DNA of 64,000 bases, taken from positions 22-64,021 of IMG/VR virus record IMGVR_UViG_3300012973_000014. The stretch is one strand, 5' to 3'. The notes beneath the pieces were generated by a model. The model was not told the DNA's origin and made no database searches. It saw only the letters and a list, made by a program, of their open reading frames with translations. Each line of letters starts with the position of its first letter. Within the stretch, counting starts at the first letter, position 1. Position numbers and translations under genes: made by a program. This document shows positions 14,790 through 36,034 of the stretch, one piece after another. This DNA comes from a virus.

Positions 14790-14813
14790 TTTAACTAAAA
14801 ACGATGTATTATG
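14790..14813 (+). promoter_or_regulatory. class-1 conserved leader cassette TTAACtAAAAacgatGTATTATG
   Basis: One of about 20 copies of TTAACCAAwAA-N(4-9)-GTATTATG, placed immediately 5' of a small ORF start. Confidence 0.55.
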
Positions 14814-15020: not shown

Positions 15021-15084
15021 AGCCGAACCGGGCACGACTTGGGAGAGTTGTGTCTGGACGAATTAACTAAAACTGTATTGTATT

Positions 15085-15321: not shown

Positions 15322-15384
15322 AGCAAGGAGGGTGCGTAGTGATACGTGCCCTTTTTCTATTTAACCAAAACGATAAGAAAAGTT

Positions 15385-15612
15385 ATGAAGACAATCAAAA
15401 TTGCTCCGAACCTTGATGAGATTGAGGTAGGGGCGAACTATGTTTCTACAGAGTGGAACGGTGGTATCAGGTACGAGGCTGAGGGATTGGACCGGTACAA
15501 GGAGGACTATCTGAAGCAGTGTTTCAGTACTGCGATAGCTATGAGTGGCCGACCATGGCAGCTTGAGGCTATATTGAACGACCATTTAGGATTGAAGGGA
15601 GTGGTGAAGTAG
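15385..15612 (+). CDS. hypothetical early protein
   Basis: Start placed at the Met after the cassette (TTAAC at 15361). ORF track 15346..15612. Confidence 0.45.
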   Translation: MKTIKIAPNLDEIEVGANYVSTEWNGGIRYEAEGLDRYKEDYLKQCFSTAIAMSGRPWQLEAILNDHLGLKGVVK

Positions 15613-15673
15613 AACGAGGAGCCGAGGCAGGGATGTCTTGGCTCTTGCAATTATTAACCAAAACGATTGTATT

Positions 15674-15937
15674 ATGCTAAACAGAAATGTAATTGAGGGC
15701 GTGGAAGGACTACGCGAACTAATTATGAGAGAGATTAGAGAACATTTGGCGGACGAATGTGAGGGCGGGCCGGTGGATATTGATATAAAGTTTAATTTGG
15801 ACGGTAACGCAGAATATTTGCGTAGTATTCAATTGGACGAGGATGGTGAAAATGTATTGGTAGTAACCGATACGGGAGTAAACGAGTTGTTCTTATATTC
15901 TCTTGATGAGATGATTAAAATTGTGGATGCGCTGTAG
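15674..15937 (+). CDS. hypothetical acidic early protein
   Basis: Start at the Met after the cassette (TTAAC at 15654). Acidic composition. Confidence 0.45.
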   Translation: MLNRNVIEGVEGLRELIMREIREHLADECEGGPVDIDIKFNLDGNAEYLRSIQLDEDGENVLVVTDTGVNELFLYSLDEMIKIVDAL

Positions 15938-15943
15938 TACTGG

Positions 15944-15971
15944 ACCCTACTTGGTGCGAATCAGGTAGGGT
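15944..15971 (+). terminator. conserved hairpin ACCCTAC-N14-GTAGGGT (copy 1)
   Basis: Identical 28-nt element repeated at 16282-16309. Followed by 'TAC..TTAACC'. Confidence 0.5.
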
Positions 15972-15999
15972 TACTATTATTAACCAAAAACGAACTATT

Positions 16000-16275
16000 A
16001 TGAAAGAGATTGAATTAGGTTCCGATGGGGGAACTATTGCTCTTATGGAATGGATTAGGGCGAACAATTACCCAGCCTTAGATACAACATTTTGTCGGTC
16101 AGCAAGCGGATACTATACTCTTATAGTATCTTCTTACGAACCGACCGAATTTGATTTAGACCTTTCCGATGGGGAGTGGTTTGAATGGAAGGGTATGAAG
16201 AGGCACTTTTGTGGTCTTCCACGAATGTGGGTGATGTATATTGACGGGTATTGGTATTACGCAACGCCTTATTGA
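16000..16275 (+). CDS. hypothetical early protein
   Basis: 91 aa. Cassette TTAAC at 15980. Confidence 0.5.
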   Translation: MKEIELGSDGGTIALMEWIRANNYPALDTTFCRSASGYYTLIVSSYEPTEFDLDLSDGEWFEWKGMKRHFCGLPRMWVMYIDGYWYYATPY

Positions 16276-16281
16276 TGAATG

Positions 16282-16309
16282 ACCCTACTTGGTGCGAATC
16301 AGGTAGGGT
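16282..16309 (+). terminator. conserved hairpin ACCCTAC-N14-GTAGGGT (copy 2)
   Basis: Identical to 15944-15971. Confidence 0.5.
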
Positions 16310-16315
16310 TACGAA

Positions 16316-16382
16316 TTTTTAACCAGCGGCGAACGGCTGTGCTGCGCTCCTACGGGAGTTTAATGGGCCGTGTTGTATTATG
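16316..16382 (+). promoter_or_regulatory. class-2 conserved leader (TTTTTAACCAGC...GCGC...TAATGGGCCG...TATTATG)
   Basis: One of 4 copies (16316, 20066, 26780, 28131) of a roughly 65-nt element with three conserved blocks. Confidence 0.5.
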
Positions 16383-17129
16383 ATGGAATATGTTAGACCT
16401 ACAGAGATGATGAGACTTACTGTTATCAATGGTAATGTTTGCGAAGGAACTATCTGCGGAGTTATCTTGACTATCGTGGAGGGTGATATTGTAATGGACG
16501 GTTACCGATTTAAGCACAATGGCAAAGGGATTATCTTGCCGGCGGATCAGGAGTTCTATTTTGATGAGAATACATTCAAGTTAGGGCAACCTATCATTCC
16601 TGACTGCTCTTGGAACGGCCTGTACAGCCTTGTTGGTTGGGACCGTCCGACCTTGTGGTACTACAAGAATGGTAAGGCAGAGCCATGGAAGTGGAAGAAT
16701 GAGCTTATTTCTTGGGAGATATTGCCTAACTATAACGCTAAGTTGTTGAACGGCTTTATCCCGGATGAGTTATTCGGCGAAGAGAAGGATGTCTATAGTT
16801 GGCACGACCTTATCGTACATAAGGATAACGGGGATATTGAGTTTAAGAAGGCTCCGCTATCTGTATTGCGATTGAATGATAATCAGCAGAAGCTGTTTGA
16901 ACAATTTAAGGCGTTACTTAAAGAGATGACCGATGCTGACATGTTGATTGTTGAAGATAGGGACCGCTGCGAACTGGCGGTATTGAACTGCAGTGAATAC
17001 AGAGTAGAGTTCGAGTGCGGCAACGATTTCGAACCGGCATTTCCGACAGATATGCAGGTTGTTATCCGTAATCATACCTATTATTACGGGGATGGTAGTG
17101 AGCGAATGAACATTTACAAGAAGAAGTAG
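16380..17129 (+). CDS. hypothetical protein
   Basis: 249 aa. Behind the class-2 leader. Confidence 0.55.
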   Translation: MMEYVRPTEMMRLTVINGNVCEGTICGVILTIVEGDIVMDGYRFKHNGKGIILPADQEFYFDENTFKLGQPIIPDCSWNGLYSLVGWDRPTLWYYKNGKAEPWKWKNELISWEILPNYNAKLLNGFIPDELFGEEKDVYSWHDLIVHKDNGDIEFKKAPLSVLRLNDNQQKLFEQFKALLKEMTDADMLIVEDRDRCELAVLNCSEYRVEFECGNDFEPAFPTDMQVVIRNHTYYYGDGSERMNIYKKK

Positions 17130-17193
17130 GTAAACGAACGGGGGCTGGTGCAGAGATGTGCCGGCCCTTACTATTAACCAATAAAATGATATT

Positions 17194-18093
17194 ATGAATT
17201 ACGAAGAGATGTACGAACGAGTTAAAGCTGAACTACAGACTGAGTACGACCTGTGCTATGTAGATTACCGGGACTCTTTTAGTGTCAAGATGGTAGCTGA
17301 ATGTCTTGAGCGAAAGAGTCTTCAACCTTTATGGGAGGAAGACTGCTACTGGGAACATCGGTCTGATGCAAGTTTTGATATTTTGGACAAGATAGGTCTG
17401 AAATTATATAAGGATTACGAGTGGCTTGAGTTTAAACAAGAGTCGTATTTGTACAATGACCTGCGTTACTTGATTCAGGAACGTGATGTAAGCGAACCAG
17501 AGAAAGACTGCTGGATGCAAACGAGGGTGGATGGCAGGGTGTTACTATTCAGTAATTATGACTGCTGGGTTCCGCCGTATGATGCCGGTGGGTTGGATGC
17601 TTTTCATGACTACCTTGAGACCGCTATGAGAGTACTATGCTTGAATCCTAAGAAAGTTAAGGAGGTTTGCAGTGAGTGGACGACTTGCAGAGGTAGGTGG
17701 CCGAATTACCATTGGAGAGATGGTAAAGAGGTGGTGAGTTATGAGGGATTTAGCAAGATATTGCGAGAGTCTTGTTCTTACGGCTTACTATGCTTTGTCG
17801 GCAAGATGAATATGAGCGAGTTATGGGATAAGATTGATAAGCAGGATGAGTTAGTTATCCCTAAGGGAACCACTGTAACTATGTTCAACCATTGGAATGG
17901 TGGTGGCAGCATGGATGATTGTAAAACTCTCAGAGATGTATCTTTGGGAGAAATGAACCGCAGAGCGCAAAAATGTCTTGTGGGAACCGAGTATGACTTC
18001 GTTGAGCTTGAGGTAGATGAGAGAGGTTGCTGTAGAGGATATAGTACCGGTGAGGTGTATGGTGGTAGCTTAAGCGATGATGACTTGTTTTAG
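17194..18093 (+). CDS. hypothetical protein
   Basis: 299 aa. Cassette TTAAC at 17174. Confidence 0.55.
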   Translation: MNYEEMYERVKAELQTEYDLCYVDYRDSFSVKMVAECLERKSLQPLWEEDCYWEHRSDASFDILDKIGLKLYKDYEWLEFKQESYLYNDLRYLIQERDVSEPEKDCWMQTRVDGRVLLFSNYDCWVPPYDAGGLDAFHDYLETAMRVLCLNPKKVKEVCSEWTTCRGRWPNYHWRDGKEVVSYEGFSKILRESCSYGLLCFVGKMNMSELWDKIDKQDELVIPKGTTVTMFNHWNGGGSMDDCKTLRDVSLGEMNRRAQKCLVGTEYDFVELEVDERGCCRGYSTGEVYGGSLSDDDLF

Positions 18094-18156
18094 TAAAACG
18101 CGGCTGTAATAGGGATATTGCAGTCGTGGCGAGTTATTAACCAAAATTGATGTATT

Positions 18157-18417
18157 ATGAAAATCAGAGAAATCAAAGCAAAGGACGGTGCAAGAGAGTG
18201 CCGTATTTTCGTGAGCAGTTGTGTAAAGAACGAGATTGATGATGGCCGTATAGTGAAGGGCTATTGGTATATTGTCAAAGGCGGACAGGTCGGACGATTT
18301 GTGCGAGAATATATCAAAAGCGGTAAGCAGCTGGATAACCTTGAGGATTATGATGTGTTCAATATCAACGGGAGCTGTGATACCAAGGAGTATTTTGCGG
18401 AATTGCTTGCTATGTAA
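18157..18417 (+). CDS. hypothetical early protein
   Basis: 86 aa. Cassette at 18137. Confidence 0.5.
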   Translation: MKIREIKAKDGARECRIFVSSCVKNEIDDGRIVKGYWYIVKGGQVGRFVREYIKSGKQLDNLEDYDVFNINGSCDTKEYFAELLAM

Positions 18418-18424
18418 CGAACGG

Positions 18425-18450
18425 GACCCCGGCAGAGATGTACGGGGTTT
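18425..18450 (+). terminator. intrinsic terminator hairpin with conserved loop GCAGAGATGT
   Basis: gaCCCCGgcagagatgtaCGGGGtttt. Confidence 0.55.
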
Positions 18451-18477
18451 TGCAATGTTTAACTAAAAGAATGTATT

Positions 18478-18735
18478 ATGACACACGAAGACCAACAGAG
18501 GTTTATTGAGCTTGCTAAAAAAGCGAGGTATAATGAGGCTATGGATGAGCTGACCACTTTTGTATGTAATCATGTCGGAGAGGGTTTTAGCGGGCCGGAC
18601 GCCGAGCGAATGGCGGACGACTTCGCACTTCTTGCGGCTTGGATATATGACCGGCTGAACGGCGAGAATCCAAGGGCAAGGAGGAGTGTAACGAACAAGA
18701 TTAGGAAGGCGCTGGGGTACATACCTATGCAGTAG
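18478..18735 (+). CDS. hypothetical early protein
   Basis: 85 aa. Cassette at 18459. Confidence 0.5.
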   Translation: MTHEDQQRFIELAKKARYNEAMDELTTFVCNHVGEGFSGPDAERMADDFALLAAWIYDRLNGENPRARRSVTNKIRKALGYIPMQ

Positions 18736-18799
18736 TGAACAAGGAGGATGCGGGGAGGCCGGCATCCTCTTGCTATTAACCAACTAAATTTTATGTATT

Positions 18800-19120
18800 A
18801 TGGAAAAAGAATGGACAGAAGCAGGTATTAAGTATGTATTTGAAACTATCAAGAAGTGGATTAAGACAAGAACCTTCAAGACTCTAAAGAATGGAACCAT
18901 AGGTGGCTCTATGACGATTAAACAAATGGAGAATCTTCTTGGCTTGCCTTACTCGAGTTCCGGTAGACATGCGGGATTATGGATATGTAACGACGTTGTA
19001 TACTTGGACCTTGAGTGTAAGTATCATATCGCTGGGTTCTGTATGGATGTACGAGGATGCGTCTATGCTGAATGTTTTGATAAAGATGAAAACGAGTTGT
19101 TTATACCTATAAATAAGTAA
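18800..19120 (+). CDS. hypothetical early protein
   Basis: 106 aa. Cassette upstream. Confidence 0.5.
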   Translation: MEKEWTEAGIKYVFETIKKWIKTRTFKTLKNGTIGGSMTIKQMENLLGLPYSSSGRHAGLWICNDVVYLDLECKYHIAGFCMDVRGCVYAECFDKDENELFIPINK

Positions 19121-19123
19121 GTT

Positions 19124-19318
19124 ATGACTATCAAGGAATTACGAAAAATGTTCTGGACTGAAGTAGCCACAGATGAGATGCGTAAGGAGTATCGCAGTAG
19201 GAAAACGCAGAATGACTATTCTACCGATGTACGATGTGCTTGGGTGGATTTTACTGACCATGCAGTAAAGAGCGGGTGGATAACACAGAAGCAGTGTGAT
19301 GAACGAGCCACCTTGTAA
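19124..19318 (+). CDS. hypothetical early protein
   Basis: 64 aa, 3-nt spacing after the previous gene. Confidence 0.4.
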   Translation: MTIKELRKMFWTEVATDEMRKEYRSRKTQNDYSTDVRCAWVDFTDHAVKSGWITQKQCDERATL

Positions 19319-19382
19319 CTATGCAGCGACCTCGCAGGGATGTGGGGTTGTTGGCGAGTATTAACTAATTAAAATATGTATT

Positions 19383-19604
19383 ATGAGACGACAAGTAGAG
19401 AAAATCCCTTCTTGGGCTATAAATGCAATTATTAATAATGATTGTACAGGGTTGGAATATAGTGAGATAGATTTAATACAGAGATGGTTTGAGGATACGG
19501 GCTATGACTATGTTTGTACTCCGGATTCGGACCCGTATTTTACTAATTACCCTGCATTTGGACTACCTTGTGATGTTTATGACTGCATCTGTGTAACCTT
19601 GTAG
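19383..19604 (+). CDS. hypothetical early protein (Cys-rich C-terminus)
   Basis: 73 aa. Cassette at 19361. Confidence 0.45.
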   Translation: MRRQVEKIPSWAINAIINNDCTGLEYSEIDLIQRWFEDTGYDYVCTPDSDPYFTNYPAFGLPCDVYDCICVTL

Positions 19605-19661
19605 AGCTGACTCAGCCCGAGTGGTATTGGGTTGGGTTACGAGTATTAACCAATAAAAATT

Positions 19662-20036
19662 ATGAAAATGGAACTAACATTAAAAGAGATGGCTCAGATT
19701 GAGAGAGCTAGAGTAGAGGCAGCTAAGAAAGAAGAGGAGAGAATCCGTGAAGAACGACTTAGGCTAAAGACGGAGGTTGTAGATGTGTTATTCAATGAGA
19801 TTAAGGATTTTATCTCTACTGTGAGAAAAAGTGATAATCCTAACAATCCATACCTTTTTATACCTATAAAAGGTTATCCTCTTGATGGGCTATGGGGGTA
19901 TACAATATACCCCGAGACAACGCTTGACTATTTCATTGTACATTATAGAGATAGTAGTTGTTCTTACGCCTTCGACTATGAGAAACGCATGAATAAAAGA
20001 GAGTTTGCGGAGAAGGTGCTAAGCTTGTATTTGTAG
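19662..20036 (+). CDS. hypothetical early protein
   Basis: 124 aa. Cassette upstream. Confidence 0.5.
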   Translation: MKMELTLKEMAQIERARVEAAKKEEERIREERLRLKTEVVDVLFNEIKDFISTVRKSDNPNNPYLFIPIKGYPLDGLWGYTIYPETTLDYFIVHYRDSSCSYAFDYEKRMNKREFAEKVLSLYL

Positions 20037-20134
20037 AACCAATCGGGCGTCAAACAGGCGCTCACTATTTTTAACCAGCACCGGACAGGGAGCGTGCGCA
20101 TCTTGTGGAAGATGTTAGAGGCCTGTTGAGTATT

Positions 20135-20791
20135 ATGAAAAAAGAGAGCGAGAAGCTATTGAACGAGATTTATGTAATGACCGAGGACCAGAAGATTAAG
20201 GACAAGGTGTTGCAAATTTTAAGGATTGAAGCGCCTCAACCGAACGGTAAGTTTGATTACTTCAAGTATGTAAGCAAGGAACTTGCGAGACCGATTATGA
20301 CTGGTGTATTCCATGATAATGGTTTTAAGGTTGCGAGCGATTGCCATATTATTGTAGCTATTAAGGACTACTACGATATAAGCGAATTGGAAGGCAAGGT
20401 CGTAGGCAAGGACGGCGCATTCATTGAGGGTAATTATCCAAAATGGAGGACTGTTATTCCTGACTTTACCTCTAAGATGCATGATTACAGGACTGAAACG
20501 GTTAAGATTGATTTTGATAAATGGGCCGAGTTCATGAAGGCATATAAGGCTGATAAGAAACTAAATTTAGAAAAGCGTTGGGTTAAGATTGGAGAACAGT
20601 ATTATAGTGTGGATTTGTTCAACTTGCTTACTATCGCCATGAGGAGGATAGGGACGGATGAGATTACTAATTCTTGGAGTCAGTATGGTGGTACTGCCGG
20701 CGTATGCAACGGGAGCGACGGTAGTATTGCACTCTTGATGCCAGCGATGAGAGCGTATGACATAGATGATGACCAGTTTTACGTATTCTAG
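20135..20791 (+). CDS. hypothetical protein
   Basis: Start at the Met after the class-2 leader 'GTATTATG'. ORF track 20105..20791. Confidence 0.5.
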   Translation: MKKESEKLLNEIYVMTEDQKIKDKVLQILRIEAPQPNGKFDYFKYVSKELARPIMTGVFHDNGFKVASDCHIIVAIKDYYDISELEGKVVGKDGAFIEGNYPKWRTVIPDFTSKMHDYRTETVKIDFDKWAEFMKAYKADKKLNLEKRWVKIGEQYYSVDLFNLLTIAMRRIGTDEITNSWSQYGGTAGVCNGSDGSIALLMPAMRAYDIDDDQFYVF

Positions 20792-20857
20792 CAGTATGAG
20801 GGGGCGTTATCCGAGAGGGTGGCGTCTCTGCTATGATTAACTAAAAAAAGAAGTATT

Positions 20858-21382
20858 ATGAAAAAATTTGAAGACCTAACAAGTAGTGAGTTGTGGAAGT
20901 TAAGAGATGAGATTACATTAAACTCTATCTATGTAGCTGACTATGAGAACTCTTTCCGTTTTAATGCAAAATGTATCTGTGCCTTTTTCGATGGTTATGT
21001 AGATTACCTCTTTGAACTAGCTGAGGAGGATAAATTCCCAGTTGACGATGAGTTTGCTGTATTTGATAAATACGACACAGAAGATAATCTTTATAACTGG
21101 TTTTGCTGCTATGACGATTTGTCTTGGGTTGAGAGCGATATCAAGGTATTCCGCTTCTCCCAGACTTACAAAAAGACCGTTACATGGCGCGAGTATTACG
21201 ATATTGAGGCTGAATCATTGGAGGAGGCTTTAGAAAAGGTTGAGGAGTGTGATGGCGACTTGGATGACTGCGAAGATGCTGAGTTTGTTGAGGCCGAACA
21301 GGAGGAGGAGAATGATGTCGATGCATATCAGAGACGAGACATTGATACCATTTATGACCCGGACGGAGAGGAGGTGGAGTAG
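20858..21382 (+). CDS. highly acidic protein, candidate DNA-mimic/anti-restriction
   Basis: 174 aa. C-terminal 70 aa very D/E-rich ('EECDGDLDDCEDAEFVEAEQEEENDVD'). Confidence 0.5.
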   Translation: MKKFEDLTSSELWKLRDEITLNSIYVADYENSFRFNAKCICAFFDGYVDYLFELAEEDKFPVDDEFAVFDKYDTEDNLYNWFCCYDDLSWVESDIKVFRFSQTYKKTVTWREYYDIEAESLEEALEKVEECDGDLDDCEDAEFVEAEQEEENDVDAYQRRDIDTIYDPDGEEVE

Positions 21383-21446
21383 AGCAAAGCAGGACCGAGC
21401 AGTGATGTTTGGTTCTGTGCGATGTTTAACCAAAAAGATGTGTATT

Positions 21447-21704
21447 ATGATAAAAAGAACTGAAATTAAGAAAGCTGTATCTGACTTGGAAGAGATGCTC
21501 TATTTCTATGTAAAAGAACAACTTGAAAAGAACGGTGATATTGATATCTCCGTACAACTTGTTAGTAATGATTTTGATTGTTACGAAGCACAAAGACTCT
21601 TCTTGAGTGAAATCGGCGAACCTATGGTAGCCACTGATATGGAGCACCTTGAGTTTTGGGGTCTTAACCTTGAGGATATGCTGGTGATTTTTGAGAATAT
21701 ATGA
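21447..21704 (+). CDS. hypothetical acidic early protein
   Basis: Start at the Met after the cassette (TTAAC at about 21432). Inside ORF 21240..21704. Confidence 0.45.
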   Translation: MIKRTEIKKAVSDLEEMLYFYVKEQLEKNGDIDISVQLVSNDFDCYEAQRLFLSEIGEPMVATDMEHLEFWGLNLEDMLVIFENI

Positions 21705-21705
21705 T

Positions 21706-21734
21706 AATTAACCCTTACTTGAGCGATTGAGTAA
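21706..21734 (+). terminator. hairpin ACCCTTACT-N10-AGTAAGGGT, same family as 15944/16282
   Basis: Followed by TACGAATTATTAACC. Confidence 0.5.
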
Positions 21735-21769
21735 GGGTTACGAATTATTAACCAAAAAAACGAATTATT

Positions 21770-22126
21770 ATGAGTATTAAAGAAAAAATTGAACAGCAGT
21801 TTATTGCAGATTTTGATTTGGATATCTTCCTGAAATTTGTAGAGGACCAATTAAGGAAGCATGGCAATGCCGAGATAGGATTGGAATTTGATAGGTCGAA
21901 TAAGTCATTAAAATCAGCTCCTTTCCAAACAGAGGGGTATTTTACTTCTAAGAAGTGGCCTACTTTTGAAAGAGCGCGCAAAAATTATTACTGGAACTCT
22001 AATTGCCAAATACCGCATCAGTTAGTCCCGTATGTCAAAAAGCAGTTAACGGAGCAAGGACTTAAAACTTCGTGCAAAGGGGCGTGCGGTTACGATACCT
22101 ATGACATTCTTGTTGTGACTATGTAG
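21770..22126 (+). CDS. hypothetical early protein
   Basis: 118 aa. Cassette upstream. Confidence 0.5.
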   Translation: MSIKEKIEQQFIADFDLDIFLKFVEDQLRKHGNAEIGLEFDRSNKSLKSAPFQTEGYFTSKKWPTFERARKNYYWNSNCQIPHQLVPYVKKQLTEQGLKTSCKGACGYDTYDILVVTM

Positions 22127-22224
22127 CGAACTGGCAGGGATGATGCGAATTATCTCTGCTTACCAATTATTAACCAACCCGAACGCGTGAGGGTGCTCCG
22201 AGAGGAGTTATGGCGCGTATAATT

Positions 22225-22530
22225 ATGAAAAATAGTCAAGATTTGTACGCTATGTACAATGTTTTGGTTTCTGATGCCAAGGAGAGTATTAGGGACATCT
22301 TGAGTAAGCAACCTAAACAGAGGGTTATAGTGGATATGTGGGTTGTTGCGGATTATCACGAAGGAGCTGAAAGGGAAGCTGTTACCGGTATTCAACTAAG
22401 GGATGGTATGATAGAGCTTATCCTTCCCGACGGCGACATTGTGAGAAGCAAAAACGTATTGAACAGCGAATGGCTCTACATCTTAGAATGCGTTGAGTAT
22501 GAACTAGCTGAGAAGGAGGGAAAGTTATGA
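22225..22530 (+). CDS. hypothetical early protein
   Basis: Start after 'TATAATTATG'. ORF track 22210..22530. Confidence 0.45.
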   Translation: MKNSQDLYAMYNVLVSDAKESIRDILSKQPKQRVIVDMWVVADYHEGAEREAVTGIQLRDGMIELILPDGDIVRSKNVLNSEWLYILECVEYELAEKEGKL

Positions 22531-22853
22531 GCAAAGTAACATGTCTCTGCTATGGGCAGGAGCGGACTTTCAAGAGCAGGAAGGCTGCTATAGACTTTTA
22601 CGCTGAGGCGATGTTTGCAACAGAGGGAGCTGAATCGGAGAGGTATAGAACCATCTTGAGTAAACTGTACCGGGGCGATAAGGTGTGTAGTGATGAGGAA
22701 ATCAGTTGGGCTGGATTAGCTGCGGCTGGAGAGGAGTTTTACCAGCAAGTAGAGGAACGGGGAGTTAAGTTTCGTGATGATGAGCACGAGCAGGAAGCTC
22801 TGTTTGACTTTATCGAGCAGGTAAAGATGTACGGAAGAGCGGAGGTGAGGTAG
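22527..22853 (+). CDS. hypothetical early protein
   Basis: ATGA overlap with the upstream gene. 108 aa. Confidence 0.45.
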   Translation: MSKVTCLCYGQERTFKSRKAAIDFYAEAMFATEGAESERYRTILSKLYRGDKVCSDEEISWAGLAAAGEEFYQQVEERGVKFRDDEHEQEALFDFIEQVKMYGRAEVR

Positions 22854-22921
22854 CGTATGCGGAGTCGAGTAGAGATATTCGGCTCTGTACTATGTTTAAC
22901 CAATTAAAAAATGAATGTATT

Positions 22922-23251
22922 ATGAAGAAATGTGAATCATGGAGCGATGTAGAGCAAATTATAGCTCCTTTTGTCAAGAGTTATTTTAGCATGGACGACG
23001 AGGTTGTACCGACATTCAAGGATAGTCTTGCACGGGTAGGAAATTCCTTCACTGGATATGACAGGGTAGTCTCGTTTCAGACTAAAGAGGGTGTTATCGG
23101 CGAGGTTAGGAAACCGGTAACGAATGGCTATGGAGAGGCTTATAGAGATAGATGTAAAGATGGGTTTGTGCTGGGACTTCTTGGTAAGAACAATAAATGG
23201 ATATATGGCCCTGTAGAGCACATTAAGAGTACGATTGAGCTTGCTAAGTAG
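22922..23251 (+). CDS. hypothetical early protein
   Basis: Start at the Met after the cassette. ORF track 22892..23251. Confidence 0.45.
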   Translation: MKKCESWSDVEQIIAPFVKSYFSMDDEVVPTFKDSLARVGNSFTGYDRVVSFQTKEGVIGEVRKPVTNGYGEAYRDRCKDGFVLGLLGKNNKWIYGPVEHIKSTIELAK

Positions 23252-23314
23252 TATTACTCCCTTGAACTCTGACAGGTTCTTGGGGGACGAATAACCAATA
23301 AAAAATTAAGTATT

Positions 23315-23605
23315 ATGATAAAATATGTATGGGTAGATGACCGAATTACTGGTAAACATACCTATGAAGTTGATATTGAGGATTTGCAGGACCTTTTAGA
23401 TTCTCTTAATGCCGTCATATATTATAAAAAGGTTTTTTATGAGAGGCTGTCTGATGTTCCACTAGAGGTTGAGCGTGAGCAAATCTGTAGCTATGGGCTT
23501 CCTACTAATCTTTATATCACAATGGCTCCTACTATAACAATAGTACCAAAGGGTACTACTATAAGGAAATGGTACATTTTTGAGGAGTTTGTGTTTCCTA
23601 GATAA
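23315..23605 (+). CDS. hypothetical early protein
   Basis: 96 aa. Cassette variant ATAACCAAT. Confidence 0.45.
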   Translation: MIKYVWVDDRITGKHTYEVDIEDLQDLLDSLNAVIYYKKVFYERLSDVPLEVEREQICSYGLPTNLYITMAPTITIVPKGTTIRKWYIFEEFVFPR

Positions 23606-23714
23606 GATATAGCCCGCCTGAGCTTTATCAGGCTTGTTTGTTTGTTTGTTTTCATAGCCCCGTACCGCTGGGAAGTGTTGCGGGGTACAATTATTAACCA
23701 TTAAAAGAAGTATT

Positions 23715-24011
23715 ATGGAAAGACCTAAATTTAAAGAAGAGCGGATTATGTTTTATACTAAAGCTGAGTTGAATAGAGAACTCTTGTGGTGGGAATGTCG
23801 ACTCTCTAATCTTAAATCTGGGATAAAAGATTATCGAGACCAGAAAGACTGGGAAGTTAATCAGGCTATAATGATGGCTAAGCATGCCATACAAAACACA
23901 CGGGCTTTGTTAAACTTAAATTTAGATGAGTATTATTTGCAAGGTTCAAAGGTGGTAGCTATTACCACTATAGCAGAGAAGCGTGATGACTTAAAGTATT
24001 ACTTCACATGA
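23715..24011 (+). CDS. hypothetical early protein
   Basis: 98 aa. Cassette upstream. Confidence 0.5.
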   Translation: MERPKFKEERIMFYTKAELNRELLWWECRLSNLKSGIKDYRDQKDWEVNQAIMMAKHAIQNTRALLNLNLDEYYLQGSKVVAITTIAEKRDDLKYYFT

Positions 24012-24054
24012 AGTGGGGTAATGCACTGATTGTTAACTAATTAAAAAAAGTATT

Positions 24055-24333
24055 ATGAATAGAAAACCATGCGTGTTTATAAAGGAGACACAAGAAAACC
24101 CTACAGCTGCGGTGTTGGTTGTACGGTTTGATGATTTAGACAAGATAGGTCATACTAGATTTGAAATAGATGGTAAGTTACACATTCTTACCCATCCTAC
24201 TACTGCCGGTATAGAGTCTATCCTACTCAGGAATATCTTGGCTATTAAAGGATATTCTATTATAGATGAGAGAGATTTTGTGTGGGAAGATGGAGCCATA
24301 GATGTTGAATTTGTAACTGATATGCCTTATTGA
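24055..24333 (+). CDS. hypothetical early protein
   Basis: 92 aa. Cassette upstream. Confidence 0.5.
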   Translation: MNRKPCVFIKETQENPTAAVLVVRFDDLDKIGHTRFEIDGKLHILTHPTTAGIESILLRNILAIKGYSIIDERDFVWEDGAIDVEFVTDMPY

Positions 24334-24349
24334 TAAAGGAGGACGAGTA

Positions 24350-24700
24350 ATGGATAAACAATTTTTAGACTTAAAGACGCGGATAGAAAACATGTCCACT
24401 GAGAAGTTCGTGCAGTGGATGAACGAGGTGTTCTTGAATCGTAATGACCACGGGTATTACTGCAAAATTCACGAGGTAGATGATGATAAATATTGGTCGG
24501 ACTATATGCGACCTATAGGGGCTGAGATTGCCATTGGCATCGCGAATGGTGTCGAATGGGGCCGTTTTAATCGCGGAGAGAGATATGTTATGTATGTAGA
24601 ATATGATGATAATTTCATCACTTTTGACACCAAGGAGCAGTTCTTTAACGAGATTTGGCCCTTGGATGATATTATTTATGAAATGAATTGTAGGAGGTAA
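24350..24700 (+). CDS. hypothetical protein
   Basis: 116 aa. Shine-Dalgarno-like AAGGAGGA upstream instead of the cassette. Confidence 0.5.
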   Translation: MDKQFLDLKTRIENMSTEKFVQWMNEVFLNRNDHGYYCKIHEVDDDKYWSDYMRPIGAEIAIGIANGVEWGRFNRGERYVMYVEYDDNFITFDTKEQFFNEIWPLDDIIYEMNCRR

Positions 24701-24779
24701 TATGAACAGAGCCGGATGCATACAGTTTACCAAGGGGTATCAGGATGATATCTTCTTGGATATAGGTAGTTAGGTCCAG

Positions 24780-25190
24780 ATGAAATCATTTAAGCTGGGC
24801 CTTGCTTTTGATATCCTGAATAACTTGCCTCTGCAGGCATATAACTTTGATTACGGGTATCATACAGACTTGTCTCCTTGCGCCCTATTCTTCAATCCTA
24901 TGATGCTGTACCAAGCCATTCAAACAGTAATGACGAGTGTGCAGATACGTTCAGGTGTTGGGGAAGACGGCGTTCTGGTCCGTAACAAGAAGGAACTTAC
25001 CAAGGCGATAATTGCCGGACACAAGGTGATATACACCGTCAAGCCTAAGTGTAAATCTCTGGCAGAACAGGCTGAGTTTTATATGGAATTATGCGAGTAT
25101 ACGGCGGTGATTGAACGGTATATATACAAGGTGGCAAGGAAGAGGATGTTCAAGATGTTTAAAGTTATGATGAGTGGGTCGGAGCAGTGA
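24780..25190 (+). CDS. hypothetical protein
   Basis: 136-aa ORF. Confidence 0.45.
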   Translation: MKSFKLGLAFDILNNLPLQAYNFDYGYHTDLSPCALFFNPMMLYQAIQTVMTSVQIRSGVGEDGVLVRNKKELTKAIIAGHKVIYTVKPKCKSLAEQAEFYMELCEYTAVIERYIYKVARKRMFKMFKVMMSGSEQ

Positions 25191-25229
25191 TGTTCCTTCC
25201 CTTCCAATTTTTAACTAAAATGAAGTATT

Positions 25230-25424
25230 ATGGAAACGAAAGAATGCAAGCAATGCCGAATAACACGCCCTTTGAGCGACTTTTGTATAAGGTTTGGTGT
25301 TATATCCAACACATGTAAACATTGTGGAAAAGCGTTAAGGAGGGAACGAAAGGAGTTTATTAAATCTATTATGCCAGCTGTGCTAAAATTAAGGGAGGAC
25401 TTAAGAAATGCCATCAGGAGATAG
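25230..25424 (+). CDS. small zinc-ribbon protein (paralog of 27213..27527 N-terminus)
   Basis: 'METKECKQC...CKHC'. Cassette upstream. Confidence 0.45.
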   Translation: METKECKQCRITRPLSDFCIRFGVISNTCKHCGKALRRERKEFIKSIMPAVLKLREDLRNAIRR

Positions 25425-26475
25425 ACCTGCAAAGAAGGTTGTTTGCGCTATTTGTGGCGTAGAGTTTTGGACTACGGGTACTAATACAAGGTACTGCGAT
25501 AATATCGCTTGTCGTAATGAAGCATCCCGGATTTCTGCTAAGAGGTGTTCTGAGAAGAAAGACGCAGATAAGATGAAGTACAAAGATTTGTATGACAAGG
25601 TTATAAAGGACGGTATAGACTGGGATTTACCAGCGACTTTGGATAAAATTACTGAAGCGATTAAACTCGTAGACGATTTATCTAAAATGATTAATGGTAA
25701 GTATTTAAACATGTCTATTACAGAACTAAAAGAAGCTTTGGTCATCTATAAGACAAAAAGATGTAATAGCGGTACATTAGAAACGGGTATTCCTGAAGTA
25801 GATGATTATGTAAGAGATAATATAATGGGTTTTATCGACTCATTATTTGATTACCAACGCTATTCATTGAAAGATATGGTTGATTGTTGCAGCCGTTTAT
25901 ATTTAGACAATACCCCTAACTATACATTATCAGAGGAAGATGCTAATTCTGGTAAGCCTTATAAATACTATGAGATTGTATATTTGAGCGAATTAGGTAA
26001 ATACCGTTTTCGTCAACTCAACGCTGGCGGACTTATAGAGGACTATTCGGGTAAGTGTTGTAATAAAGAGTGCCCATATAATTTTGAACCTTCTTATAAA
26101 TATTCATGGGAAAGGGGTCGTGGATGTTCTCTCATCTGCAACCAAGATGGCTCCCGCAGGTCATCTATTACACAAGGACGTTGTTCTTTATTTATAAGGT
26201 GTGAGTATAGAAGGCTGGTGGATGATAAGCAGAGAGCTATGAAAGCCTGTAGATATCATATTGCGAGAAGGTATTTAAAATACACCGTAGATTTTGAAAT
26301 TGTGAGAGCTTTACGAGAGTTATTCTTTTTAGAAAAGCTTCCTAATAAGAATGTTTCATCTCGTATGGTAAAACTGATTAGAGAAAATTGTGAAACTTTT
26401 ATAAAGAAAGATTTTTATTCTAAAAATAAGAAACTCATTGATAGATATAATTACTTACACAAAAAAACATTCTGA
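25408..26475 (+). CDS. hypothetical protein with N-terminal zinc ribbon
   Basis: 355 aa. 'CAICGVEF...YCDNIACRNE'. AAGGGAGGA upstream. Confidence 0.5.
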   Translation: MPSGDRPAKKVVCAICGVEFWTTGTNTRYCDNIACRNEASRISAKRCSEKKDADKMKYKDLYDKVIKDGIDWDLPATLDKITEAIKLVDDLSKMINGKYLNMSITELKEALVIYKTKRCNSGTLETGIPEVDDYVRDNIMGFIDSLFDYQRYSLKDMVDCCSRLYLDNTPNYTLSEEDANSGKPYKYYEIVYLSELGKYRFRQLNAGGLIEDYSGKCCNKECPYNFEPSYKYSWERGRGCSLICNQDGSRRSSITQGRCSLFIRCEYRRLVDDKQRAMKACRYHIARRYLKYTVDFEIVRALRELFFLEKLPNKNVSSRMVKLIRENCETFIKKDFYSKNKKLIDRYNYLHKKTF

Positions 26476-26478
26476 ATT

Positions 26479-26739
26479 ATGAAACCAGTAAACGAAAAAT
26501 CACTATTACATCACTTGTTTGAGCAGATGGATAAATTAGACAAGGGTGAAATTACTACCGAGCGAGCTGTTGCTCATGCTAAATTAGCAAATGAAGCCAC
26601 GAAATTATTCAAGCAGGAAATGGACCGAGCAAGGTTGTTTATGGATTTGCAAGACCATGCAGCCAAGACTGGTCAAATGATTGGGCTTAGAGAGTTAGCG
26701 TCAAAAGGATTTGATGATACGACCAAGGTGATTGGGTAG
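26479..26739 (+). CDS. hypothetical protein
   Basis: 86-aa ORF. Confidence 0.45.
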   Translation: MKPVNEKSLLHHLFEQMDKLDKGEITTERAVAHAKLANEATKLFKQEMDRARLFMDLQDHAAKTGQMIGLRELASKGFDDTTKVIG

Positions 26740-26835
26740 AACAAAGAGACTGGGACCTAATCGTCCCTTTCTCTGCCATTTTTAACCAGCACGGAGCCGG
26801 TGTAGTGCGCCTAAATAGGTAATGGCCGGATGATT

Positions 26836-26979
26836 TATGAGACAACAATTTGTGCAGTGCAGGTATCGCTACCAAGCATTAAAGGAATGCCCTTGGAGTA
26901 GTAGGGTTGCAAAAGTGAACGGTGGCTATATGTGCTTTGAATCAATTAGTGATTATTATACATGGAGGAATCAGAAATG
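26836..26979 (+). CDS. hypothetical small protein (47 aa)
   Basis: Read by hand behind the class-2 leader at 26780. Below the ORF-track size cutoff. Confidence 0.3.
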
Positions 26980-27210
26980 AACAAACAAAGAAGAAAGCGT
27001 TTAGAAGATGTTGTGTCCCGCCTTGAGGAATGCATGTCCGACTTGGAGTTTATCAAGGAAGAGGAGCAGGAGGCTTATGATAACCTACCTGAGTCAATCC
27101 AGTACTCAGAAAGGGGCGAGTTAATGCAGGAGATTGCTGATGATATAGATTATGCCATTAGCGATTTGGACCAAGTAATCGATAGTGTTAATGAAATAAT
27201 AAATAAATAG
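26962..27210 (+). CDS. small acidic helical protein
   Basis: 82 aa, D/E-rich. Confidence 0.45.
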   Translation: MEESEMNKQRRKRLEDVVSRLEECMSDLEFIKEEEQEAYDNLPESIQYSERGELMQEIADDIDYAISDLDQVIDSVNEIINK

Positions 27211-27212
27211 TT

Positions 27213-27527
27213 ATGGAAACAAAAGTATGTTCAGTGTGCGGTCAAGAGTTACCTCTTGAGGATTTCGTGAAAAATAGTAGATGCAAGGATGGGTATGGGG
27301 CTCATTGCAAGAAGTGTCATAACAAGAAATACCCTTATCATTATAAGGATAAAGCGAATAAGAAGGTTGAAGTTAAGGATGCTCCGGTTGTCTCTGATTA
27401 TGTAAAGAGAGAACTTGAGCAGAATAATCTGCTCGTCATTCCTCCACGCTTACTTATAGCAGCGTTGAGGTATCACGGTTATCGTGGTGAACTGCAGAAA
27501 GTGACAGTAGAGACTGTCGTTATTTAG
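27213..27527 (+). CDS. zinc-ribbon protein (paralog of 25230..25424)
   Basis: 'METKVCSVCGQELPLEDF...CKKCHNKK'. Confidence 0.45.
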   Translation: METKVCSVCGQELPLEDFVKNSRCKDGYGAHCKKCHNKKYPYHYKDKANKKVEVKDAPVVSDYVKRELEQNNLLVIPPRLLIAALRYHGYRGELQKVTVETVVI

Positions 27528-27577
27528 CAAGGGCTGGTGCGACGGCTTACAAGTATTAACCTTAAAAGATAAATGAT

Positions 27578-28093
27578 ATGGAATTATTGGAAACTATTGC
27601 TTACGAGCATGGATTGGATTTGATTGAAACGACTTCGGATGGAACCGGTTATCCTCGTGATTTGAAGTATGCTGTTATCGGTTTTGAAACCTTTGACGAG
27701 GCTCAGGAGTTGGCGGACAGGTATGGATTGACTGTTCGGGAGTTTACCAGACGTGATGGTTGGCAGCTTTGGGTGAGAGGTGGAAAGATGTTCGGGGAGT
27801 ATGATTATGAGAAAGTAATGGGCGAGGGGTATCCAAACGAAGTTATTAGAACGTATCGTCATACTGATGCTGAAGATGTTATATCCGATTTGAGAGAGCA
27901 CCTGCAGTATGCCAGCTTGCGTGATATGAAAATCCTGATTGAGAACGCTGAGGAGGTCTTAGAGAAGTTAGATGGCTGTCAACCGGATGAGTTTATTGTA
28001 ACATGCGCCGGAGAGTATGACGGCACTTATCATTGCAAAACCATGTCCTTCGCCTACGACTCTTCCCGATACGCAATCGGAATTGCGGAGTAA
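27578..28093 (+). CDS. hypothetical protein
   Basis: 171 aa. Cassette at 27559. Confidence 0.5.
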   Translation: MELLETIAYEHGLDLIETTSDGTGYPRDLKYAVIGFETFDEAQELADRYGLTVREFTRRDGWQLWVRGGKMFGEYDYEKVMGEGYPNEVIRTYRHTDAEDVISDLREHLQYASLRDMKILIENAEEVLEKLDGCQPDEFIVTCAGEYDGTYHCKTMSFAYDSSRYAIGIAE

Positions 28094-28187: not shown

Positions 28188-28637
28188 TTGCCTATGCAAG
28201 TATTCATTCCTTATGCAAGTCCGTTTGATACGGCAATGGCATTAAAAGGAGATAGACGCTTCTTAAAACAGATTCAAGAAACAAGACAGATTCTCTCTGC
28301 TATCTACGACCCGACAAGAGGATACGCTAATCATCCTGTGACTAAGATGTACAAGAATCATACTCAATGGCTTTATCTGTATCTCATGGTGTTTGAGTTT
28401 GTCAGAGACAACAATCTGATATCAGCCCGGTTCACTTCATTCTGCGCTGACAGATGCAGACCCGAGTGGATGACTGATGAGCTATGTGACCAGCATAAGA
28501 GACGCCTGTATACCAAGAATCCGCAGCGTTACCCACATTGGGCTCATCTTGGTACATCGCTGGAAAATTGGTATGTAGTGAACGGGGAGGTAAAAAAGTA
28601 CATTAATGGCAAAATAATTTTGCAAAATAAAAACTAA
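28188..28637 (+). CDS. hypothetical protein
   Basis: 149 aa. Behind the class-2 leader. Confidence 0.5.
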   Translation: MPMQVFIPYASPFDTAMALKGDRRFLKQIQETRQILSAIYDPTRGYANHPVTKMYKNHTQWLYLYLMVFEFVRDNNLISARFTSFCADRCRPEWMTDELCDQHKRRLYTKNPQRYPHWAHLGTSLENWYVVNGEVKKYINGKIILQNKN

Positions 28638-28736
28638 CCTATTAACTTTGTAAGAAAATTTGAGATATGACACTATTGTTTATTATATGGGGAATCGCGT
28701 ATTTCTGCGAGGAACTGATAAATGGAGGTAAATAGT

Positions 28737-29498
28737 ATGGTTTACGCGTATTATCGTTATTCTACAGGCAAGCAGACTGAGATGCAACAGGAGCATAGAG
28801 TTCGGGAATACTGCCATAACCGAGGCATAACTATCGACGCTGTGGTTATAGATAGAGCCGTAAGTGGAGCCATATCTATAGAAAACAGGAATCTCGCAGC
28901 GCTGATTGGAAAGATGAAGCCGGGGGATACATTGATTGTTTCAGAGGTATCACGTATATCCCGTTCTATTGGGGACTTCTGCGAGTTTATATTGGTTGCC
29001 ATGCCTAAGCTTAAAGCGAGGCTAATCGTCTGCAGTATGGGTCTGGATATAGATTGTGCTAATATGTCCGGTATGACGCAGATGCAGCTGATGATGTTTT
29101 CATGCTTCGCTCAGATAGAGCGAGAGCTTATTACGGACCGTATTCAGGCGGCAATAGACGCTCGCAAGGAAGCCGCTAAGGTTAACGGTGGTTGGACATC
29201 CAAGTCCGGCAATTACTGCACTCATTTGGGACGGGATTCGTTCAACGACCCTTCAGCAGCCGGTAAGAAATCGGCATTCAACAAGAAGAAGAAGTTTATG
29301 AAGGGTATGCGCCCGGTAGCGGAGCATATAAGGTTATTAAAAAGCACTACAGATTTGGATAATCTACGAATAGCTATTGCCCTTAATAATGCCGGATTCA
29401 GAACTGGCAACGGAGGTAAGTTCCATCATTCACATATACCTAAAATACTGAAATATGACGAAGAAGGTATCTATTACGAAGAAGCAGACTTCATGTAA
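28737..29498 (+). CDS. small serine recombinase (resolvase/invertase family)
   Basis: 'VYAYYRYSTGKQ' catalytic Ser motif, 'SEVSRISRS', C-terminal HTH. Start placed at the Met before the motif (ORF track 28722). Confidence 0.75.
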   Translation: MVYAYYRYSTGKQTEMQQEHRVREYCHNRGITIDAVVIDRAVSGAISIENRNLAALIGKMKPGDTLIVSEVSRISRSIGDFCEFILVAMPKLKARLIVCSMGLDIDCANMSGMTQMQLMMFSCFAQIERELITDRIQAAIDARKEAAKVNGGWTSKSGNYCTHLGRDSFNDPSAAGKKSAFNKKKKFMKGMRPVAEHIRLLKSTTDLDNLRIAIALNNAGFRTGNGGKFHHSHIPKILKYDEEGIYYEEADFM

Positions 29499-29556
29499 GA
29501 AATGTAAGGACTGCTATTGGGTTATCCCTGACATGAGCAACTTGTCAATACCGACA

Positions 29557-29579
29557 CAGGAACCTATAATGGGTTCCTG
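29557..29579. promoter_or_regulatory. 23-bp perfect palindrome CAGGAACC-TATAATG-GGTTCCTG (candidate recombinase site or operator)
   Basis: Seen directly in the sequence, 58 nt downstream of the recombinase stop. Confidence 0.35.
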
Positions 29580-29623
29580 CCGGTTCCAAAAATATAAAGT
29601 ATTACTTAATCAAAACGCATGCA

Positions 29624-30067
29624 ATGAGAACTTTAAGAAGAGAGATGAACGATAAGGAGAAAAATGAAATAAACTCCCTTATTAACAGCTATTTTGTCCT
29701 TATGGAGGGTGCTGATATGCTCATAAGGAGAAGTGAAGCTTTGTTTAACAATTTTGGACAAGGATGGGATGGTAATCGAAAGATGAGACACAACCGTATA
29801 ATGCGCCATGTGTCCGCATTAAAGCTGGAGCTGGATTCATTCTTCAAAGACTATGAGTGCTTCGGTAAGGGCGAGAACTATGTAACCAAGTATGACATGA
29901 TGCGTGATGCAGCTTCATATATAACAAGATTGACACTCCTTATAGGAGATAGGACCTGCAGGGAAGATGAGAAGAGAGTTAGGCAGAATATCTGGGATTA
30001 CATCTATTACTTGCCTGAGCAAGGGTTGATTACTGATGAGGCTTTGGATAAACTTAAAATGAGGTAG
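29624..30067 (+). CDS. hypothetical protein
   Basis: 147-aa ORF. Start may be Met-8. Confidence 0.45.
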   Translation: MRTLRREMNDKEKNEINSLINSYFVLMEGADMLIRRSEALFNNFGQGWDGNRKMRHNRIMRHVSALKLELDSFFKDYECFGKGENYVTKYDMMRDAASYITRLTLLIGDRTCREDEKRVRQNIWDYIYYLPEQGLITDEALDKLKMR

Positions 30068-35811: not shown

Positions 35812-36034
35812 AATGTTTTTTCGTTATAACAAAATTGAGTGCGCTTTATGGGAGGCACTGTTGTCCCTTGTTGCAACAATACGAAGGTATAACAAGGCAA
35901 ATCGGGAAAAGTTCATTCTATCAAGAAAAAATTATTGTACTGAATATGTGAGTGTTACCTGATAGGTGTGAAGATAATTTTGCAAAATAGGAGTTAAATA
36001 CCTTACTTTGTAGAAATTTTAAAAGAAAGCGGAT

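Follow-up and report, generated by a model that had tools for sequence, protein, structure and literature searches.

What does a small serine recombinase do in a phage that appears to be lytic, and is the perfect palindrome lying shortly beyond its gene the site on which it acts? These questions are raised by a 64,000-nucleotide stretch of viral DNA (positions 22 to 64,021 of IMG/VR record IMGVR_UViG_3300012973_000014, the whole of which is referred to below as the window), in which a recombinase gene is closely followed by a 23-bp palindrome. An earlier note, made from the letters of this DNA, had proposed that the palindrome is a crossover or binding site or an operator. The explanation that we consider best overall, and hold with a little more than even confidence, is that the gene encodes a phage serine recombinase, that the palindrome is coding sequence and not the site of this enzyme, and that the enzyme has a replication-linked role, the last part being put forward as a guess. 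The elements in question are the following (lengths of proteins in amino acids, aa).

28737-29498, plus strand: serine recombinase gene (253 aa; Pfam, PHROG, PDB, AF2 and Foldseek agree)
29455-29655, plus strand: gene for a 66-aa four-Cys protein, beginning, in a different frame, within the 3' end of the recombinase gene and overlapping the next gene at its end
29557-29579, plus strand: 23-bp palindrome, codons 35-42 of the small four-Cys gene

The predicted recombinase

The recombinase open reading frame (ORF) extends from the ATG at 28737 to the TAA at 29496-29498, and its product begins with MVYAYYRYSTGKQ. In all homologues the start corresponds to ATG 28737, not to the upstream ATG 28722. 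The earlier note gave the coordinates of this ORF exactly, its protein length of 254 aa having to be corrected to 253 aa.

Profile and structural comparisons consistently predict that the product of 28737-29498 is a serine recombinase whose catalytic residues are intact, as the earlier note had proposed from the catalytic motif. The Pfam Resolvase model PF00239 covers residues 2-148 with 87.1 bits (cut-off 23.3; E=1.5e-24), the best PHROG is PHROG 125, "DNA invertase" (E=4e-28), and sequence matches in PDB are to the gamma-delta and Tn3 resolvases, Gin and the catalytic domain of TP901-1. R7, S9, R73 and R76 are invariant in a 30-sequence alignment of the family and align to R8, S10, R68 and R71 of gamma-delta resolvase. 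The AlphaFold2 (AF2) model (predicted local distance difference test score, pLDDT, of 82) consists of the catalytic domain, of alpha/beta type, a long E helix spanning residues 112-150 and a C-terminal domain of four helices; its top Foldseek matches are Bxb1 (264 aligned columns), TP901-1 and gamma-delta resolvase, with a probability of 1.00 against the catalytic domains of TP901-1, gamma-delta and Sin. The protein can be divided as follows.

Residues 1-150: catalytic domain with long alpha-E helix
After residue 150, before the C-terminal domain: GGWTSKxGNxCTHLG motif, conserved in the family
Residues about 174-242: four-helix C-terminal domain, the protein ending in KYDEEGIYY

A C-terminal helix-turn-helix had also been proposed for this protein. 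The helical character of the C-terminal domain is indeed predicted by AF2, but the helix-turn-helix family HTH_7 has no match in the whole recombinase (E<=0.1) or in the C-terminal domain alone (E<=10). On the other hand, 7 of 13 C-terminal domains from the family match the "Recombinase" model PF07508 (best E=1.2e-5); the window's own domain matches weakly, its 12.4 bits (E=0.19) falling below the cut-off of 21.1. Searched alone against PDB and Pfam profiles, this domain gave weak PF07508 and HTH_62 signals only, and no PDB sequence match. No zinc ribbon was matched in the recombinase, which has no Cys cluster and no coiled coil either. The C-terminal region spans about 100 aa, and the chain ends at residue 253, about ten residues past the last modelled helix of the domain (H233-242), with one short terminal helix. 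Because of the weak PF07508 match and the lack of HTH_7, the protein, small as it is, would have a DNA-binding domain resembling a cut-down version of the large-serine-recombinase type; that is, the C-terminal domain is predicted to be a short, degenerate, helical "Recombinase"-type DNA-binding domain. The protein is nonetheless too short for a large serine integrase, as had been noted, its 253 aa being about half the size of one.

We considered and rejected assignment to several described types. The Mpi master invertase family (NF009949) is the best NCBIfam model (E=2e-23) and aligns over residues 1-149 only, with 83 bits against a cut-off of 272. The IS607-type serine transposases do not fit the N-terminal position of the catalytic domain, and with the corresponding model, NF033518, the protein reaches 17 of the 110 bits required. 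The layout of small resolvases and invertases (~180-200 aa, with HTH_7 right after the E helix) is not that of a 253-aa protein lacking HTH_7.

A phage-restricted family

An indexed search returned 49 homologues of 246-274 aa, together with one distant 206-aa match, from Logan, ENA and JGI; none of the 49 came from NCBI, UniRef or isolate genomes. In a scan of 1.84 billion cluster representatives, 95 representatives (50% identity) were found at E<=1e-30, most of them full-length, and 144 relatives were found in IMG/VR, where their contigs measure 9-86 kb (mostly 40-86 kb). Megablast found no match among phage isolates, and tblastn returned only two unannotated phage records from faecal metagenomes, at 35% identity. 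The family thus appears, so far, only in phage-like metagenomic contigs, and we assign the recombinase by sequence to an uncharacterised, phage-restricted subfamily of serine recombinases.

Related phage loci or contigs that we compared with the window are labelled L001-L009, L100-L104 and so on. The phage group of the window comprises 12 loci, in which recombinases 56-96% identical stand in a fixed gene order, namely a DenV-like glycosylase (or its remnant), a promoter with a mini-ORF, the recombinase and the overlapping small ORF; the promoter and mini-ORF were read directly in the window, L001, L002, L004 and L005. L006-L009 have an extra 75-aa ORF directly ahead of the recombinase. The genes flanking the recombinase and the small gene in the window are the following.

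28188-28637, plus strand: DenV / T4 endonuclease V-like pyrimidine-dimer glycosylase (Pfam Pyr_excise, E=8.8e-11), syntenic with the recombinase in all close relatives
29624-30067, plus strand: 147-aa gene overlapping the end of the small gene; L100 and L102 have a gene of 147 aa at the corresponding position, and L002 aligns to part of the window gene

The glycosylase has decayed to remnants in L004, L006 and L009. Moreover, L006 and L009 lack about 11 kb of early genes (window 17.2-28.5 kb), with the 3' glycosylase remnant, the promoter and the recombinase being kept. Wherever synonymous divergence (dS) is unsaturated, the ratio of nonsynonymous to synonymous divergence (dN/dS) of the recombinase is 0.04-0.14, so that the gene appears to be under purifying selection in every related contig examined. 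Distant members of the family lie in other early-gene arrays, beside HNH or homing endonucleases, TnpB, an IS1595 transposase or a beta-clamp gene.

The block made up of glycosylase, recombinase and small ORF (28194-29655) has a GC skew of 0.03-0.15, compared with a mean of 0.25 (standard deviation 0.07) for its early-gene surroundings, which hints at a separate origin. We also observed a subfamily of recombinases of 352-368 aa, with a Cys-rich N-terminal extension of about 60 aa (CKDCPYC...C...C), in the IMG/VR loci L062, L065, L067 and L069-L099 (gene at about 9821-10885). The idea that the small four-Cys ORF is a detached form of this extension found no support (hhalign probability 4.6%), and a Cys-rich small ORF is not consistently present beside the recombinase across the recombinase subfamilies. 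In seven of these loci (L069, L077, L078, L079, L088, L091 and L093) a 13-bp inverted repeat, TAATGCGAGAAAA, recurs, one arm lying inside the recombinase 3' end (10797-10809) and its partner 1.9-4.4 kb downstream; this repeat may have been inherited among close relatives.

The palindrome and the small four-Cys gene

The palindrome is exactly as the earlier note described it, CAGGAACC-TATAATG-GGTTCCTG at 29557-29579, beginning 58 nt after the recombinase stop. It is not intergenic: it makes up eight codons of the small four-Cys gene (CAG GAA CCT ATA ATG GGT TCC TG, peptide QEPIMGSC). Of the 16 arm bases, 12 occupy the first or second position of codons for Q-E-P and G-S-C, so that most of the symmetry follows from the peptide QEP..GSC itself.

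By its pattern of conservation the small ORF appears to be a real, separate and independently conserved protein gene. It starts within the recombinase KYDEEGIYY codons and is found in all 12 related loci (L001-L009, L100-L102). A five-sequence alignment of its product has 24 invariant residues, including the four cysteines (C17, C20, C42 and C56), and its dN/dS is 0.06-0.27 over the non-overlapping part. The protein family consists of 21 clusters, among them members with no adjacent recombinase, one following an RNA ligase gene (L103) and another lying between DUF5758 and a DNA methylase (L104). When L102 (4060-4966) is compared with the window (28737-29655), a mosaic junction is seen: the recombinases are 62% identical (dN 0.32) and the small ORFs nearly identical (dN 0.06, dS 0.95), from which we infer that the two genes have been exchanged independently.

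As a site, the palindrome would be bound by a recombinase dimer on its 8-bp arms, either to recombine with a partner site or to repress through the TATAAT core. Its position agrees with this idea, as the sites of recombinases often adjoin their genes, and so do its perfect 8-bp-arm repeat and the presence of other palindromes at the same place in relatives (a different one with 9-bp arms in L002, imperfect ones in L100 and L102). Against it stands the location of the palindrome within a selected coding gene whose family also occurs apart from the recombinase. Nor is it exceptional by number: perfect palindromes having a spacer of 3-10 nt and arms no shorter than 8 bp number 12 in the window, compared with 7.4 +/- 2.4 in Markov-1 simulations, which is no more than chance. 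A second copy, which the earlier note had proposed to look for, was sought in the 64-kb window and 11 related loci. There is none with up to three mismatches in the window, where the 8-mer half-site occurs in the two arms only (1.5 copies expected); the 11 related loci contain one stray 8-mer (in L100) and a few scattered 7-mers at chance level.

The geometry is also unfavourable. In crossover sites such as res site I (28 bp) and hix/gix (26 bp) the dyad separates the two base pairs at the centre of the 2-bp stagger. The palindrome is laid out as 8+7+8, with the dyad on the central A of TATAATG, i.e. on a base pair, and this odd spacer does not suit a 2-bp staggered crossover. Furthermore, L004-L009 and L101 do not have the palindrome, and the hairpin at this position is missing in L004/L005, L006/L008 and L101, despite the fact that the recombinases of these loci keep the conserved C-terminal motifs (LNxxGFxTGNGGK...KYDEEGIYY) presumed to contact DNA, and in L002, according to our reading of the alignment, the left arm lies about 3 nt away from where the window has it. 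As a separate observation, homology of the window with L002, L003 and L007 stops at 29579, the last base of the palindrome.

Read as RNA, the palindrome would fold into a stem some 10 bp long (-19.1 kcal/mol), and we tried several known identities for it. It is absent from the list given by a consensus scan for intrinsic terminators, the stem being followed by CCGGTTCCAAAAATATAAAG with no T-run. No Rfam family matches within 28500-29900. The covariance model R1 of an early intergenic hairpin of this phage (described below) finds nothing overlapping 29500-29650, even at E<=10 with filters off. One compensatory synonymous pair was noticed between the window (GAA/GGT) and L100 (GAG/GGC); as the pair is broken by L102 (GAG/GGG) and L006 (GAG/GGA), we do not count it as evidence of covariation.

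Promoters, the probable host and the TATAAT core

The sequence between the glycosylase and the recombinase contains the following elements.

28617-28650, plus strand: Bacteroidota-type promoter before the recombinase cassette, a consensus match from which its function is deduced
28617-28628, plus strand: extended -33 element ATTTTGCAAAAT of this promoter
28643-28650, plus strand: -7 element TAACTTTG of this promoter
28667-28735, plus strand: mini-ORF for a hydrophobic 22-aa peptide (MTLLFIIWGIAYFCEELINGGK), placed after the promoter and before the recombinase start

The arrangement TTTG-N17-22-TAnnTTTG occurs 10 times in the window (1.8 expected), once at 28619-28650. The 12-bp palindrome ATTTTGCAAAAT is present in four copies (0.4 expected; 11136-11147, 12500-12511, 28617-28628 and 35977-35988), each in a promoter region; three of them, lying ahead of the primase gene (11136, minus strand), the recombinase (28617) and a Band_7 gene (35977), have the promoter layout in common. 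It may represent an operator or the mark of a promoter class; by this shared layout, the recombinase promoter appears to be of the same class as that of the primase gene. The recombinase promoter is kept in L001, L004 and L005, and partly in L002. The mini-ORF peptide is conserved despite nucleotide changes in L001, L002, L004 and L005, and in the window its last codons provide a GGAGG just upstream of the recombinase ATG. Shine-Dalgarno-like motifs precede only 25% of genes (13% background). The enrichment of TTTG/TAnnTTTG promoters and the scarcity of Shine-Dalgarno-like motifs make Bacteroidota the likely host.

This bears directly on the TATAAT core, to which the earlier note had drawn attention. 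Bacteroides promoters do not use the sigma-70 -35/-10 consensus, so in a Bacteroidota host the TATAAT of the palindrome would not be a meaningful -10 element. TTGTCA-17-TATAAT does score 11/12 against the sigma-70 consensus, which might favour an operator or promoter at the palindrome, but it is a consensus that the probable host would not use, its promoters being of the TTTG/TAnnTTTG type. Moreover, sigma-70-like sites are not enriched in the region (13, compared with 19.8 in shuffles), and neither hexamer is conserved in L002 or L006.

Overall, a crossover site of the recombinase at the palindrome is not credible, and for the broader idea of a binding site or operator, with coding sequence under selection, absence in relatives and no second copy all against it, we would leave only a very small chance. 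The proposal of the earlier note on this point thus finds no support. The palindrome is better read as a by-product of the peptide or, at most, as an mRNA hairpin tied to the small gene.

A possible hairpin of the small gene

To evaluate the hairpin, the lowest 40-nt folding energy within the small gene was compared with that of 200 synonymous recodings, a null that preserves codon usage only. The proportions of shuffles reaching the observed energy were as follows.

Window: 0/200
L002: 0.005
L101: 0.010
L104 (no recombinase nearby): 0.015
L100: 0.05 (borderline)
L004, L006, L102 and L103: no signal

The value for the window is biased, the site having been picked for being a palindrome; when the values of the six lineages not belonging to the window's clade are combined by Fisher's method, p is about 0.001. 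The codons at which the stems lie differ from one lineage of the small gene to another. These results, including the signal in a locus without a nearby recombinase, are what one would expect if the gene carried a selected RNA or single-strand DNA hairpin, one that might, independently of the recombinase, affect the stability or processing of the mRNA or control translation of the overlapping genes. On the other hand, four of the nine lineages have no signal, the null keeps codon usage only, and the hairpin floats in position, lacks a T-run and falls outside the phage's own family of intergenic hairpins. We therefore regard a selected hairpin as a tentative possibility, clearly short of even. 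A genuine signal would have to be attributed to the small gene or its mRNA and not to the recombinase.

Search for substrates and for signs of lysogeny

No inverted or direct repeats above chance flank the recombinase or any segment of the window. Within +/-6 kb of 65 loci of the wider family, exact inverted pairs of 13-16 bp number about 2.6 per locus, which we estimate to be the chance level. Likewise, none of 117 alignments with the 12 related contigs (window 5.3-38.3 kb) is inverted, and the orientation of the minus-strand island does not differ among the 12. A Gin/Cin-like inversion or a control of the minus-strand island, both of which the earlier note had envisaged, is accordingly disfavoured.

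Prophage relatives were sought in 185,579 species genomes with a single peptide pattern, a search of limited sensitivity, which gave only ~30%-identical proteins from unrelated bacteria. Neither terminal repeats nor target duplications were found around the cassette. The functions identified in the window include a helicase, a methyltransferase, a primase, a lysozyme, a major head protein and a Band_7 protein. Among about 40 ORFs scanned (with Pfam, PHROGs or NCBIfam; Pfam itself on 25) there was no match to a tyrosine integrase, repressor, excisionase or ParAB. The description of the phage as apparently lytic is consistent with this lack of lysogeny and partition families, which does not amount to proof.

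Possible roles of the recombinase

The role that we favour, as a tentative guess held at well below even confidence, is work on replicating phage DNA. The recombinase would cut and rejoin DNA by the usual serine mechanism, as a tetramer making 2-bp staggered cuts followed by subunit rotation, and its substrate would be the phage DNA in replication; it might resolve, or monomerise, circular multimers arising from an iteron-type origin, or cyclise incoming genomes. About 11 GGTAGT(T)/ACTACC iterons in both orientations (11789-12008) lie at the cumulative GC-skew minimum beside the primase and helicase genes, inside a 1.1-kb divergent intergenic region (11689-12795), and probably mark a replication origin; a triplet of GCCGTTTTT-like repeats was also observed at 12310-12349. 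An iteron-type origin so placed would fit circular, plasmid-like replication, for which resolvases are the usual answer to multimers. The origin and the -33 promoter class shared by primase and recombinase provide a weak link to replication. Several points weigh against this interpretation or against the account of the palindrome that accompanies it. Phages that package from concatemers have no obvious need for a resolvase, and the genome may extend beyond the 64 kb of the window. Resolvase genes usually adjoin their own res site, and no res-like array of repeated subsites is visible around the recombinase; indeed, our searches found no recombination site of any kind for the enzyme. The position of gamma-delta D67 is occupied in this family by Ser (S72), unlike in resolvases. 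Finally, the hairpins that beat synonymous recoding in the window, L002, L101 and L104 (p<=0.015 each) suggest that the palindrome is possibly not a pure by-product.

Neither this replicative role nor any of the other roles considered here, i.e. integration, inversion and selfish or host-directed action, needs the palindrome. The recombinase could be an integrase whose phage, living on an uncultured member of the Bacteroidota, is temperate or integrates occasionally; attP would then lie at some place in the phage genome. The relation of its C-terminal domain to the "Recombinase" domain of large serine integrases and the top Foldseek match to Bxb1 would agree with this, and small serine recombinases do integrate some phages, e.g. 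the Ralstonia phiRSM filamentous phages (PMC3816273). However, all 49 homologues are metagenomic, and the scan of species genomes, with its limited sensitivity, yielded distant proteins only. No homologue contig looks like a host-flanked prophage, since none of those fetched exceeds 85 kb. The ORFs scanned include no repressor, excisionase or second integrase, and the surroundings of the gene are an array of small early genes and not a lysogeny module. The zinc ribbon and coiled coil, from which large serine integrases derive their selectivity for att sites, are also absent from the protein, and we consider an integrase unlikely. A Gin/Cin/Hin-like invertase, flipping a tail-fibre segment, a promoter or the minus-strand island (32.9-35.8 kb), is suggested by the best PHROG and by the best NCBIfam model, that of the Bacteroides Mpi invertase. 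The score against the latter is far below its cut-off, though, inverted repeats are not significant in the window and are at chance level in the 65 related loci, no alignment is inverted, the orientation of the island is constant and the large structural genes are 13 kb away, which leaves inversion with a very low probability. The gene might instead be selfish or directed at the host, as a cassette moving between phages or an enzyme rearranging host DNA, e.g. phase-variable invertons controlling capsule receptors. Such a role would agree with the mobile-element neighbours of distant members (homing endonucleases, TnpB and the IS1595 transposase) and their varied early-gene contexts, the lower GC skew of the block from Pyr_excise to the small ORF (0.03-0.15 versus 0.25 +/- 0.07) and the possession of its own early-type promoter. 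Its position is fixed in the window's phage group, however, and was kept even where about 11 kb of neighbouring genes are missing; terminal repeats and target duplications are lacking at the cassette, and no sequence link to a host site was found. We judge this explanation to be rather improbable.

In its most far-reaching form, the family would be a minimal phage-restricted recombinase of the large-serine-recombinase lineage (about 95 clusters at 50% identity), kept by non-integrating Bacteroidota phages for a job undescribed for serine recombinases of virulent phages, whether on host DNA (e.g. capsule invertons) or on replicating phage DNA, with the floating hairpin of the four-Cys gene being a selected RNA element; this combination as a whole we hold to be improbable as well. 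Matches to PF00239 are commonly used to label metagenomic phages as temperate; PMC12823448, for one, applies the model to small serine recombinases. Here a conserved and, as predicted, catalytically intact recombinase family is found in early-gene arrays of gut phages with no other lysogeny trait or integrated copy detected. If this is upheld, such matches would be unreliable markers of lifestyle for this phage group.

Other elements in the window

The early region contains an intergenic hairpin element in at least 22 copies (14699-27580, plus strand), located before small early genes (e.g. 15610-15676, 18092-18159, 19317-19385 and 21703-21772). It is composed of a variable GC-rich stem, the loop GCAGRGATGT, TTRCnA, TATTAAC(C/T)AAAA, about 8 nt, and GTATT-ATG. 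RNAalifold of 18 copies gave 12 pairs, for each of which one or more sequences have compensatory changes. From these 18 copies the covariance model R1 was built, which has 22 matches at E<=0.05, all within 14.7-27.6 kb, four of them being further copies. No Rfam family matches the element. A tRNA at 4418-4493 (plus strand) is detected by Rfam (42 bits, gathering score 29) and is not reported by ARAGORN.

Comparison with known systems

The large serine integrases (Bxb1, TP901-1, phiC31 and SPbeta SprA) are the best full-length structural matches of the window protein, and their C-terminal domain is weakly related to its own; it differs from them in being about half the size, in lacking the zinc ribbon and coiled coil, and in showing no sign of integration. 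With Gin, Cin and Hin (of Mu, P1 and Salmonella) it shares the character of a phage-borne small serine recombinase, the PHROG label "DNA invertase" and a PDB match to Gin. In contrast to these systems, the window has neither an invertible segment nor 26-bp inverted sites of the gix/hix kind, and tail-fibre genes are not adjacent, the recombinase gene being part of an early-gene array in a phage in which no lysogeny genes were detected. The Bacteroides Mpi master invertase provides the best-scoring NCBIfam model and probably shares the host phylum, but with 83 bits against the required 272 and an alignment limited to residues 1-149, the window protein is not a member. The phiRSM filamentous phages likewise encode a small serine recombinase and integrate into the host chromosome (PMC3816273), whereas no integrated copy or att-like repeat was found here.

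Finally, compared with the Tn3/gamma-delta resolvases, which have about 185 aa and a three-helix HTH_7, the window protein is longer (253 aa), carries a PF07508-like C-terminal domain of ~100 aa, has Ser as the equivalent of D67, and is encoded with no adjacent res-like array of subsites. On the other hand, it has in common with them, and with the plasmid multimer resolvases (ParA of RP4, Sin and beta), the catalytic fold, the equivalents of R8, S10, R68 and R71, the E helix and a helical C-terminal DNA-binding domain. It is to plasmid and plasmid-prophage resolvases, or to Cre/lox of P1, that a replicative role of the recombinase would be likened.

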